Virus record (IMG/VR): IMGVR_UViG_2648501150_000028
Direction: 5' to 3' (one strand)
Source of the DNA: a virus
Lineage: Duplodnaviria; Heunggongvirae; Uroviricota; Caudoviricetes
DNA length: 6,008 nucleotides
The position numbers and the translations under genes were made by a program. Of the stretch, positions 2,426-4,528 are shown piece after piece (within the stretch, counting starts at the first letter, position 1; every line of letters begins with the position of its first letter). The notes under the pieces were generated by a model. That model was not told the origin of the DNA. It made no database searches and worked only from the letters and a program-made list of their open reading frames with translations.

Positions 2426-2620
2426 ATGATATTTAAATGTATTCAGTGCGAGAGGGATATAACAGCCCTGCGTTTTCACAGCGCCATCGCCGTGATGTCC
2501 GGTAAATACCACATCCCTGCGGTACGCGTCACCCTGGTCTGCCCGTACTGCAGCCAGCATTTTTCGGCAGACGTGCCCGTCATGGAATTCTCCCGCCCTG
2601 ACAGGGAGGACTCGCAATGA
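2426..2620 (+). CDS. small zinc-ribbon protein (two CxxC pairs), function unknown
   Basis: RBS GAGGAG 2411-2416, ATG 2426. 64 aa with C5-x2-C8 and C39-x2-C42 (CIQC ... CPYC). Stop TGA 2618-2620 overlaps the next start (ATGA), indicating translational coupling. Confidence 0.6.
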   Translation: MIFKCIQCERDITALRFHSAIAVMSGKYHIPAVRVTLVCPYCSQHFSADVPVMEFSRPDREDSQ

Positions 2621-2889
2621 TTACCCCACAGGAAGCACGACAGCGCACCCGAACCCTTGTTGAACACTATGTCAACGAGTGTGAATGCCGCGACCTCACC
2701 GATGTGAAGCACGTCCTGACGGCGCTAATCAGCATGACCGCTCAAGCCATTGTGGCGACCAACGGAAAGGCGGCTGCCCTGCAGGTACTGGTGAACACAC
2801 TAACCCACACGGCAGCGCATGAGGTGCCGTACCGGATGGAAACCACTGCAGAAGGCGGCCTGCACATCACCGTCAGCCGGAAGCACTGA
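2617..2889 (+). CDS. hypothetical 90-aa protein, translationally coupled to the zinc-ribbon ORF
   Basis: ATG 2617 inside ATGA overlap with the upstream stop; RBS AGGGAGGA 2603-2610. No family recognised. Confidence 0.55.
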   Translation: MITPQEARQRTRTLVEHYVNECECRDLTDVKHVLTALISMTAQAIVATNGKAAALQVLVNTLTHTAAHEVPYRMETTAEGGLHITVSRKH

Positions 2890-2898
2890 GGGCGCGGC

Positions 2899-3195
2899 AT
2901 GACACGGAACACCATACTCACCCGCACCGCCCTCTACCGTCTGGCCCTGCAGCGTTTCGGGCCGGACGCACAGGCCCTGAAACTGACAGAAGAGGCCGCT
3001 GAACTGGCGGCCAGTGCTGCCCGCAATCTGAACGGACAGGGCAGCGAAAGCGACCTCGCGGCAGAGCTGGCAGACGTGGAAATCATGACAGAGCAATTGC
3101 GCCTTCAGGGGATGGACCGGCTGATTGACTTCCACAAACAGAAAAAACTGGAACGTCTGGCTGCACGACTGGGCGTGATTTACACGAACGAGTAA
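2899..3195 (+). CDS. small MazG-like (all-alpha NTP pyrophosphohydrolase fold) protein, tentative
   Basis: ATG 2899, weak RBS GAGGG 2888-2892. The 98-aa product has two acidic helix motifs spaced as in MazG/HisE-type NTP-PPases: LKLTEEAAELAASAAR and, about 25 aa later, DLAAELADVEIMTEQLRL (compare the E-E-x-x-E-L and E-E-[LI]-x-D-V pattern). Recognised by eye, not searched. Confidence 0.55.
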   Translation: MTRNTILTRTALYRLALQRFGPDAQALKLTEEAAELAASAARNLNGQGSESDLAAELADVEIMTEQLRLQGMDRLIDFHKQKKLERLAARLGVIYTNE

Positions 3196-3209
3196 CCGGG
3201 AGGCATTCA

Positions 3210-3425
3210 ATGGCTGACATACTCAGGGAAATCACCGCATGGATACTGATTCTTACTGGCCTGGCGACATGCCTCAGTGCGGGGGCAGCCCTGGCTGCCC
3301 TGCTGATGCACATAACAACACAGTGGTTATGGGAAAAGCTTAAAGCAGCATACAGCCTGAAAGAGCTGTCCGACGCTGTCCGGGCATGGAAACGGCAGAA
3401 AAATACCGGAGATACAGAACAATGA
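3210..3425 (+). CDS. small membrane protein (71 aa, one predicted transmembrane helix)
   Basis: RBS GGGAGG 3198-3203, ATG 3210. Hydrophobic segment ITAWILILTGLATCLSAGAALAALLM followed by a charged C-terminal tail. Stop TGA 3423-3425 overlaps the next start (ATGA). Confidence 0.6.
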   Translation: MADILREITAWILILTGLATCLSAGAALAALLMHITTQWLWEKLKAAYSLKELSDAVRAWKRQKNTGDTEQ

Positions 3426-4105
3426 CAGACCAGAATAAACACATTGAGAAACTGAAAAAGTTGCTGGCGCTGGCCGCATCCGGCAACCCGCACGAGGCCG
3501 CTCTGGCACTGTGCCGAGCCCGTAAACTGATGGATGTTCACGGCATCACACATTCCGACATTGCTATGAGTGATATTGATGAAACCATCAGTCACTACTG
3601 GCCGACAGGCAGTCTCCGTCCACCGCGCTACATGCTGGGCCTGATGAACATCATCCGCGAGGTATTTGGTGTTAACTCCATCATTCACCCCGGCACGCAT
3701 CCGTCTGTGGGGTTCTACGGCAACCGGGAACGTGCGGCACTGGCTGCATACACCTGGGAAGTGCTGGCCCGTCAGCTGAAAAAGGCGCGTCAGCAGTATA
3801 TCAGTGCACAGAACAAAAGAATAAAAACCGCCACCCGCACCAGCCGTGGAGACCAGTTTGCCGAAGGCTGGGTGCTGGCCGTTATCAGTGAAATACAGTC
3901 CTTTGCCCTGACCGATGATGAGCGTGAACTGATGCAGCAGTGGCTGGAACATAAATACCCGCAGACGCAAACCACCAGGGCGCGTAAACCGGGAAGAAGC
4001 CGCAATGGCGACGCCTCGCGCTATGCGGGGTTTCGTGAAGGGCAGAACGTCAGACTGCACCGCCCGGTCAGTGGGCAGGAACAACAGAAACTGGAGGCCA
4101 GATGA
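3422..4105 (+). CDS. phage protein with a DUF2786-like N-terminal motif, function unknown
   Basis: ATG 3422 (RBS GGAGA 3408-3412) preferred over the in-frame ATG 3386, which has no RBS and would overlap the upstream gene by 40 nt. N-terminal KLKKLLALAASGNPHEAALALCRARKLM matches the motif I associate with the phage/plasmid DUF2786 family; the domain name is from memory. Basic C-terminal tail. Confidence 0.6.
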   Translation: MTDQNKHIEKLKKLLALAASGNPHEAALALCRARKLMDVHGITHSDIAMSDIDETISHYWPTGSLRPPRYMLGLMNIIREVFGVNSIIHPGTHPSVGFYGNRERAALAAYTWEVLARQLKKARQQYISAQNKRIKTATRTSRGDQFAEGWVLAVISEIQSFALTDDERELMQQWLEHKYPQTQTTRARKPGRSRNGDASRYAGFREGQNVRLHRPVSGQEQQKLEAR

Positions 4106-4332
4106 TTACGCTATCAGGTAAAAGCCGGAAATTAAAAGCCTGCCGAATATCTGCCAGATACCTTTTTGCCCGCGCCTTTTTTAAGAACGTCAGGCCGGGG
4201 ATCACAATTGGTGTTATTGCCGGACGCGAACAGGTTGAAAAATACATGTCAGGTGCATGGTGGAATAACGACCCTGTCATTGCTGCCCGTAATATTCATA
4301 TCGAATGGGGAGGTATTCAGAATGACTACTGA
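4102..4332 (+). CDS. hypothetical 76-aa protein
   Basis: ATG 4102 in ATGA overlap with the upstream stop; GGAGG 4093-4097 upstream. Basic N-terminus, no family recognised. Overlaps the next ORF by 11 nt. Confidence 0.45.
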   Translation: MITLSGKSRKLKACRISARYLFARAFFKNVRPGITIGVIAGREQVEKYMSGAWWNNDPVIAARNIHIEWGGIQNDY

Positions 4333-4528
4333 AACCATTGTCTGTTTTCTTTTCTGGTATATGTACGCAGGATCATGCAGCGCAAGACTTCATCGTTCCC
4401 TGGGCTATGGCAGGCACTACGACACCGCGCATTACATCCTGTACATGACCGCCGTCATGTTGTTCTGGCCAGTCACCCTGCCAGCTGCAACCGACATTGT
4501 TGCCGACAGACTGAAAAAAAGGAGATGA
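4322..4528 (+). CDS. small membrane protein (68 aa, two predicted hydrophobic helices)
   Basis: RBS GGGGAGG 4307-4313, ATG 4322; the longer ORF-track version from ATG 4166 has no RBS and overlaps the previous gene. Hydrophobic segments IVCFLFWYMYAGSC and YILYMTAVMLFWPVTLPAA. Stop TGA 4526-4528 lies 1 nt before the gemA start. Confidence 0.5.
   Translation: MTTETIVCFLFWYMYAGSCSARLHRSLGYGRHYDTAHYILYMTAVMLFWPVTLPAATDIVADRLKKRR

Follow-up and report, generated by a model that had tools for sequence, protein, structure and literature searches.

A mosaic cassette of seven small genes between gam and gemA as the probable accessory early region of a BcepMu-type Escherichia coli prophage

The window analysed here, a stretch of 6,008 nucleotides from IMG/VR virus record IMGVR_UViG_2648501150_000028, carries by its sequence, in its first 5502 bases, the early (right) arm of a transposable Escherichia coli prophage of the BcepMu type. 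A preliminary description had placed seven small open reading frames (ORFs) between gam and gemA, and this arrangement was confirmed: the cassette occupies 2426-4528 between flanking genes recognised by Pfam, and A, B, gam, the cassette, gemA and mor all lie on the + strand. In order, it comprises o1 (2426-2620; 64 amino acids, predicted zinc ribbon; phrog_3401, E 1.6e-40), o2 (2617-2889; 90 amino acids, no assigned function; phrog_3691, E 7e-55), o3 (2899-3195; 98 amino acids, an all-alpha candidate MazG-like nucleotide pyrophosphohydrolase; phrog_2245, E 2.8e-34), o4 (3210-3425; 71 amino acids, a predicted single-pass membrane protein; phrog_3958, E 1.7e-41), o5 (3422-4105; 227 amino acids, DUF2786 and DUF7168), o6 (4102-4332; 76 amino acids, basic, no assigned function; phrog_3681, E 6.5e-55) and o7 (4322-4528; 68 amino acids, a probable small membrane protein; phrog_6436, E 1.2e-44). 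We regard this stretch as the probable semi-essential accessory early region of the prophage, whose products would condition the host for replicative transposition.

The seven ORFs are real genes and not chance frames, since each product matches a full-length PHROG family (E 1e-34 to 1e-77) and the median ratios of nonsynonymous to synonymous substitution (dN/dS) against diverged homologues are 0.23 for o1, 0.37 for o2, 0.15 for o3, 0.46 for o4, 0.12 for o5, 0.18 for o6 and 0.42 for o7, values indicative of purifying selection on all of them. A GGAG-type Shine-Dalgarno sequence stands 6-10 nt 5' of each gene. Neighbouring genes overlap at four of the six internal junctions, by ATGA at three (o1/o2, o4/o5 and o5/o6) and by 11 nt at o6/o7, the remaining spacers measuring 9, 14 and 1 nt; the claim that most of the genes are chained by ATGA was thus slightly overstated. 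No sigma-70-like or terminator-like site was found when the + strand was scanned from 2329 to 4528. Given the common strand, the tight packing and this empty scan, transcription as the distal part of the early operon would be the simplest reading. The starts of o5 and o7 at 3422 and 4322 are those of RefSeq; the longest-ORF forms, 3386-4105 and 4166-4528, were rejected, as the PHROG alignments begin at their residues 12 and 53, respectively. Also rejected was a minus-strand ORF at 2339-2617 (annotated at 2339-2560 in PhiKM), a codon-aligned antisense frame of o1 in which stops are rare and which several relatives carry in interrupted form, while o1 on the + strand keeps four invariant cysteines together with its low dN/dS.

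Of 5426 complete E. coli genomes, 629 carry the cassette, 621 with a coverage of at least 80%; clonal sampling inflates these counts. Since the E. coli sample is clonal, a wider one was used for comparison, consisting of 80 viral contigs anchored on GemA and 24 species-representative genomes, about 21 of whose loci were informative; layouts were obtained by tiling the ORFs between B and gemA in 71 viral loci. These 71 loci display 28 distinct cassette layouts, and the same picture emerges from the 24 species genomes. In second-tier relatives, B, GemA and Mor are 84-95% identical to those of the window, whereas the cassette proteins are 38-74% identical, absent or replaced. Only 22-46% of the length of the cassette could be aligned with the nearest other phages, at 71-76% identity, against 88% identity for the flanks. 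The comparison supports the reading of the cassette as an accessory, exchangeable early region, and the variability that the preliminary description had expected is real, with the qualification that one gene is nearly universal.

That gene is o1, found in 70 of the 71 viral loci and in about 19 species loci. It is followed by o7 (66 viral and 16 species loci), o5 (62 and 15) and o3 (56 viral loci, plus four with a long form of 169 amino acids, and 12 species loci), while o2 (42 and 1), o6 (40 and 3) and o4 (25 and none) are more sporadic. By this distribution o1 behaves as a core gene, o5, o3 and o7 as a soft core, and o2, o4 and o6 as exchangeable extras, o4 being restricted to the E. coli lineage. 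In the case of o7 the slot is kept as the sequence diverges fast, identity in second-tier relatives falling to 38-47%. Relatives of the KP12 type are devoid of o5 and other relatives of o3; in three viral loci (L082-L084) and five Photorhabdus species an o1-like gene is the sole cassette gene, with a B-gemA interval of 700-790 bp.

What relatives carry in place of the window's genes is varied as well. A protein with a Lar restriction-alleviation domain (PF14354, E 2e-8) occupies the slot in L069 and a dATP/dGTP pyrophosphohydrolase fusion (PF04447, E 5e-44) in L043, and several domain-shuffled proteins with no assigned function are found there in other relatives. The alternative cassette proteins (L003 4447-4833, L043 4616-5107, L057 3407-3886, L069 4459-5121 and L074 4431-5117) share either an N-terminal module (MPQN.KL.DDRLAHI.QSLKRWA.HDNALNSYISGQKIDPIFHDC) or C-terminal segments, their partners being the dATP/dGTP pyrophosphohydrolase domain, the Lar domain or unknowns; common modules joined to differing partners point to domain shuffling inside the slot. 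Individual loci also carry lesions: in L037 (about 4312-6008) an insertion of some 1.3 kb splits o6, and in L029 and L033 gam or o5 is frameshifted. Immediately upstream, gam (1798-2328 in the window) is found in 35 of the 71 viral loci and a DUF3164 gene (3288-3899 in L003) in 32, in the same slot, and the two never occur together among the 71 viral and 24 species loci; Mu has gam only and BcepMu DUF3164 only. The two genes may be functional analogues.

The 97-nt gap between gam and o1 contains a conserved non-coding leader (2359-2425, + strand), made up of a U/C-rich tract (2359-2372), an imperfect GC-rich hairpin (2373-2405; CCGACGTCAG..GCC GCG GGC..CTGcACGCCGG), the motif AAACAG and the Shine-Dalgarno sequence of o1. 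It marks the left edge of the variable region. Conservation of the leader stays at about 90-95% even in relatives in which identity of the o1 protein has dropped to about 55%, and either gene, gam or DUF3164, can precede it; in Mu and many Mu-type contigs an equivalent hairpin comes after gam, the first gene behind it being a different one. Structure prediction places the central hairpin in each of 11 diverse copies (z -1.1 to -2.9), and RNAalifold returned a 5-bp stem, GGCGY/RCGCC, with one covarying pair (C-G/U-A). A further, outer helix between the U/C tract and the Shine-Dalgarno sequence is confined in the predictions to the window type, two relatives and Mu. No Rfam family matched the leader, a search of the literature on the element after Mu gam returned nothing relevant, and a pattern scan of the viral contigs found it once per contig and never outside this prophage lineage. 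An intrinsic terminator was considered and rejected, as the T-run lies 5' of the + strand stem, A-rich sequence follows on the 3' side and the scan for terminators was empty there. The leader may be an element for RNA processing, stability or translation, a protein-binding site, or a mere recombination joint.

With respect to the proteins, the announced zinc-ribbon protein is o1, the best conserved gene of the cassette. It matches no Pfam family above threshold, and its classification as a zinc ribbon rests on two CxxC knuckles (C5, C8, C39 and C42) that are invariant in 18 diverse homologues, the lowest identity being 21%. Two small membrane proteins had also been proposed: o4 has one clear predicted transmembrane span (hydrophobic from about residue 4 to 36, KD19 maximum 2.02), whereas the two segments of o7 are weaker and moderately hydrophobic (KD19 maximum 1.52), so that o7 is a probable small membrane protein only. 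The two unknowns, o2 and o6, kept that status, the only families found for them being PHROGs of unknown function. A P22-like Salmonella phage has, in its ea region, a 73% identical homologue of o6 whose neighbours are Dam and Dcm methylases, a TraR-like gene, DUF4222 and EaA/DUF550. For all cassette proteins, the PADLOC scan returned nothing at E <= 0.01, a lone JetC match (E 0.026) being at chance level, and the NCBIfam scan nothing meaningful.

The candidate enzyme of the set, o3, keeps the metal-binding motif EExxE(12-28)ExxD as E31-E32-x-x-E35 and E56-x-x-D59; E31, E35 and D59 are invariant in alignment A2, and E31, E32, E56 and D59 in alignment A4. Its sole significant family match is phrog_2245. 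The NCBIfam hisI domain was under its cut-off (E 0.035), PDB searches with the single sequence and with the A2 profile gave no credible match, and the comparison of the o3 profile by hhalign with the BcepMu gp06 pyrophosphatase and with the PF04447 protein of L043 was insignificant. A precedent for such a protein is Atd1, a phage MazG-like protein that depletes (p)ppGpp, relieves TIR-mediated toxicity and counters TIR-based defence (bioRxiv 10.1101/2022.06.09.495361). By analogy, a counter-defence role of o3 is plausible.

The DUF2786-like protein is o5, which exceeds the Pfam cut-offs both for PF10979 (DUF2786; 39.3 bits, cut-off 23.9) and for PF23771 (DUF7168; 90.3 bits, cut-off 25.5). Its predicted structure (pLDDT, predicted local distance difference test, 85; pTM, predicted template modelling score, 0.76) consists of an N-terminal helical hairpin and a beta-alpha-beta-beta-alpha core. 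In the model this core is KH-like and probably nucleic-acid-binding, though it departs from a KH domain proper, that is, a beta-alpha-alpha-beta-beta-alpha fold with a GXXG loop. Conservation peaks in an invariant basic stretch, K132-W150. The structural relatives found in BFVD are all uncharacterised and come from highly diverse phages, PDB searches with the single sequence and with the A1 profile gave no credible match, and the literature on DUF2786 and DUF7168 offered incidental mentions or none, with no role assigned. The family extends to 205 phage records, lytic phages, large ones too, among them; homologues map to the early region of a true MuA/MuB-type Aeromonas prophage, and others come from Pseudomonas B3 and JBD24-type phages, Ralstonia phages and numerous phages that do not transpose. 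This breadth, together with a dN/dS of 0.12, fits a general phage function better than that of an arms-race inhibitor.

The backbone around the cassette departs from the Mu-type framing that had been given to the phage. Over bases 1-5502 the identity is 99.0% to Escherichia phage PhiKM (Bcepmuvirus) and 99-100% to prophages of hundreds of E. coli chromosomes, and both the gene order and the B protein are of the BcepMu type. From left to right on the + strand, the window contains the C-terminus of the DDE transposase A (70-321), the ExeA/B-type ATPase B (332-1498; 59% identity to BcepMu gp08, Mu offering no significant match), an ORF of 89 amino acids directly 3' of B (1501-1770), the host-nuclease inhibitor gene gam as the left flank of the cassette (PF07352, E 2.5e-40; 60% identical to Mu Gam), gemA of the gp16 family as its right flank (4530-4979; PF06252, E 8.3e-41) and, as the final gene ahead of the prophage end, a mor-type activator (4951-5340; 54% identical to BcepMu gp01 and annotated in RefSeq as 'Mor transcription activator family protein'). 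The ORF at 1501-1770 is conserved in 68 of the 71 viral loci and has no Pfam match; it aligns weakly with the C-terminus of Mu Kil (LxGCxIxW) and, over 58 columns, with a Kil protein (PF26843) from Aeromonas (E about 0.002 and probability 12-15% by hhalign), so that a Kil counterpart is possible.

Every prophage match ends at 5502-5509, where the sequence reads ...CTAATCA. The remaining 506 bases of the window (5503-6008) are 99.8% identical to the interior of the O-like replication gene of the lambdoid phage cdtI, the match beginning 180 nt past the start codon of that gene; this copy therefore inserted itself by transposition into a resident lambdoid prophage, whose replication gene it disrupted. 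The same prophage end adjoins araH in strain EcPF7. Within the lambdoid replication gene, a 21-nt unit is repeated in tandem about 7.7 times at 5589-5759 (alternatively scored as 2.4 copies of a 66-nt unit), an array which looks like the origin iterons of that phage.

The semi-essential early region of these phages has been described as long, poorly conserved and encoding small uncharacterised proteins (PMC8705779). In the window, the cassette has the early-operon position and strand of such a region, downstream of A, B and gam and upstream of gemA and mor as the preliminary description had stated, and its small ORFs are less conserved than the flanking core genes. The natural relatives that do without every gene but o1 hint, though only indirectly, that the cassette may be dispensable for plaque formation or transposition. 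In the model that we consider probable, upon induction or infection the seven genes would be transcribed as the distal part of a long early operon with the transposase, the B-type ATPase and Gam, and each would be translated from its own Shine-Dalgarno site, with coupling at the four overlapping junctions. The hairpin leader ahead of o1 would probably tune expression of the cassette, by affecting the processing or stability of the mRNA or by masking the ribosome-binding site of o1. The products would form a heterogeneous set and no single machine, their joint role being to condition the host for replicative transposition; o3 would act as a nucleotide pyrophosphohydrolase, removing an alarmone or nucleotide signal or editing the nucleotide pool. 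Together with the sporadic small proteins, for which a counter-defence role is plausible, o3 is the most likely host-directed or counter-defence component, and circumstantial backing comes from what relatives have in the slot, a Lar-domain protein and nucleotide pyrophosphohydrolases.

Several observations weigh against this model. Early-operon expression and translational coupling are inferred from the layout of the genes; the helix that would occlude the Shine-Dalgarno sequence is restricted to some lineages, and covariation in the leader amounts to a single pair; and the high E. coli genome counts owe part of their size to clonality. None of the cassette proteins gave a match to an anti-defence or host-takeover protein that has been characterised, a dedicated anti-defence set of hidden Markov models not having been used. 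As for the MazG-like label of o3, the PHROG family and the acidic motif agree with it, but the Pfam PRA-PH match is sub-threshold (E 0.047; 14.5 bits against a cut-off of 21.3) and the profile comparison with E. coli MazG by hhalign is insignificant, though the alignment covers the catalytic motif.

A serious rival, by analogy with BcepMu, is that the retained genes support replication and transposition, o1, o3 and o5 serving phage DNA metabolism and not acting on the host: o3 would sanitise the nucleotide pool, and o5 and o1 would bind nucleic acids. The BcepMu slot does keep HU-like and SSB-like genes along with a pyrophosphatase, the dN/dS values of o5 and o3 are the lowest of the cassette, o5 combines a KH-like core with its invariant basic motif, and o1 is nearly universal. 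Nevertheless, Mu and BcepMu transpose without any of the o1-o7 proteins, and the KP12-type relatives without o5, those without o3 and the Photorhabdus relatives without anything but o1 point in the same direction; we judge this explanation possible but rather unlikely. The host-takeover or anti-defence island of the preliminary description, in which most of the seven proteins, expressed early, would inhibit host immunity (restriction, abortive infection or nucleotide signalling), fared partly well, in that the content is accessory, mosaic and exchangeable. It also draws on the adjoining gene for a nuclease inhibitor, gam, on the Lar-domain protein in the same slot of the relative L069 (absent from the window), on the precedent of the MazG-like Atd1 and on the o6 homologue next to anti-restriction methylases in the P22-like phage. 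Against it stand the lack of similarity to characterised inhibitors in the searches described above, the lack of an aca-like helix-turn-helix regulator, the retention of o1, o5, o7 and o3 across genera, and the strong constraint on o1 and on o5, the latter being shared by many unrelated phages including large lytic ones. We consider a dedicated island of this kind unlikely.

Less likely still is the case of lysogenic-conversion morons, in which the small membrane proteins and others would be expressed from the prophage to the advantage or protection of the lysogen, superinfection exclusion being one example. The membrane character of o4 and o7 and the frequency of the prophage in clinical E. 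coli would suit them, but no promoter-like or terminator-like site brackets any cassette gene, the genes are embedded and translationally coupled within a repressed early operon, and PADLOC gave no defence match; we judge this explanation very unlikely. A bolder composite, in our estimation improbable, would make the hairpin leader, common to Mu-type and BcepMu-type enterobacterial phages, and o1 a conserved control unit that gates an exchangeable payload and also serves as a recombination joint, with o3 as an Atd1-like counter-defence enzyme that depletes alarmones or nucleotides and o5 as the founder of a new class of KH-like nucleic-acid-binding effectors.

The relevance of the cassette derives from the abundance of its carrier: the prophage resides in about one ninth of complete E. 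coli genomes, many of them clinical, and its early accessory genes would be expressed in very many inductions. The comparison sets apart o2, o4, o6 and the MazG-like o3 as candidates for tests of host-directed or anti-defence activity, o1 and o5 being likely to have a conserved phage function, while the leader common with Mu could govern the whole region. The value of the analysis lies in the prioritisation of experiments, the type of region being already known and the knowledge of such regions remaining unchanged.

Among known systems, the semi-essential early region of Mu (kil ... gam, gp11-gp15, gemA) occupies the corresponding place in the early operon, is likewise flanked by gam and gemA/mor and also consists of small, tightly packed ORFs of unknown function. 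Its gap of about 98 nt after gam also holds a T-rich tract, a GC hairpin and AAACAG, and the region encodes the small Cys-rich proteins gp6 and gp13; gp6 aligns with o1 only at the CPxC motif (hhalign probability 10%). The content differs, as had been stated: none of the seven proteins has a Mu homologue detectable by BLAST, and tblastn detected none of o1-o7 in BcepMu either. Unlike Mu, the window has a BcepMu-type backbone and an early arm which terminates at the prophage end. BcepMu matches it in this backbone and in the order A-B-[variable slot]-gemA-mor-end; its slot (gp03-gp07) contains a pyrophosphatase and DUF3164, as in many relatives of the window, but its HU-like, SSB-like and gp07 proteins have no detectable similarity to o1-o7. 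The ea (early-left) region of P22-like and lambdoid phages combines an o6 homologue with methylases and TraR-like genes, and its EaA/DUF550 is the dATP/dGTP pyrophosphohydrolase domain seen in the cassettes of relatives; it belongs to another phage type with other regulation, o6 being the only gene in common with the window. Atd1, which counters TIR-STING and retron-TIR toxicity, resembles o3 in being a small MazG-like phage protein of a single domain, with acidic catalytic motifs and a gene placed among accessory genes; the two are likened by description and not by sequence, o3 lying under the Pfam MazG/PRA-PH thresholds and the substrate of Atd1 being (p)ppGpp. Finally, the DUF2786/DUF7168 proteins of the Pseudomonas B3, JBD24/D3112-group, Ralstonia and Aeromonas transposable phages, all uncharacterised, form the same two-domain family as o5, with 33-36% identity over about 90% of its length, and are likewise encoded in early regions.

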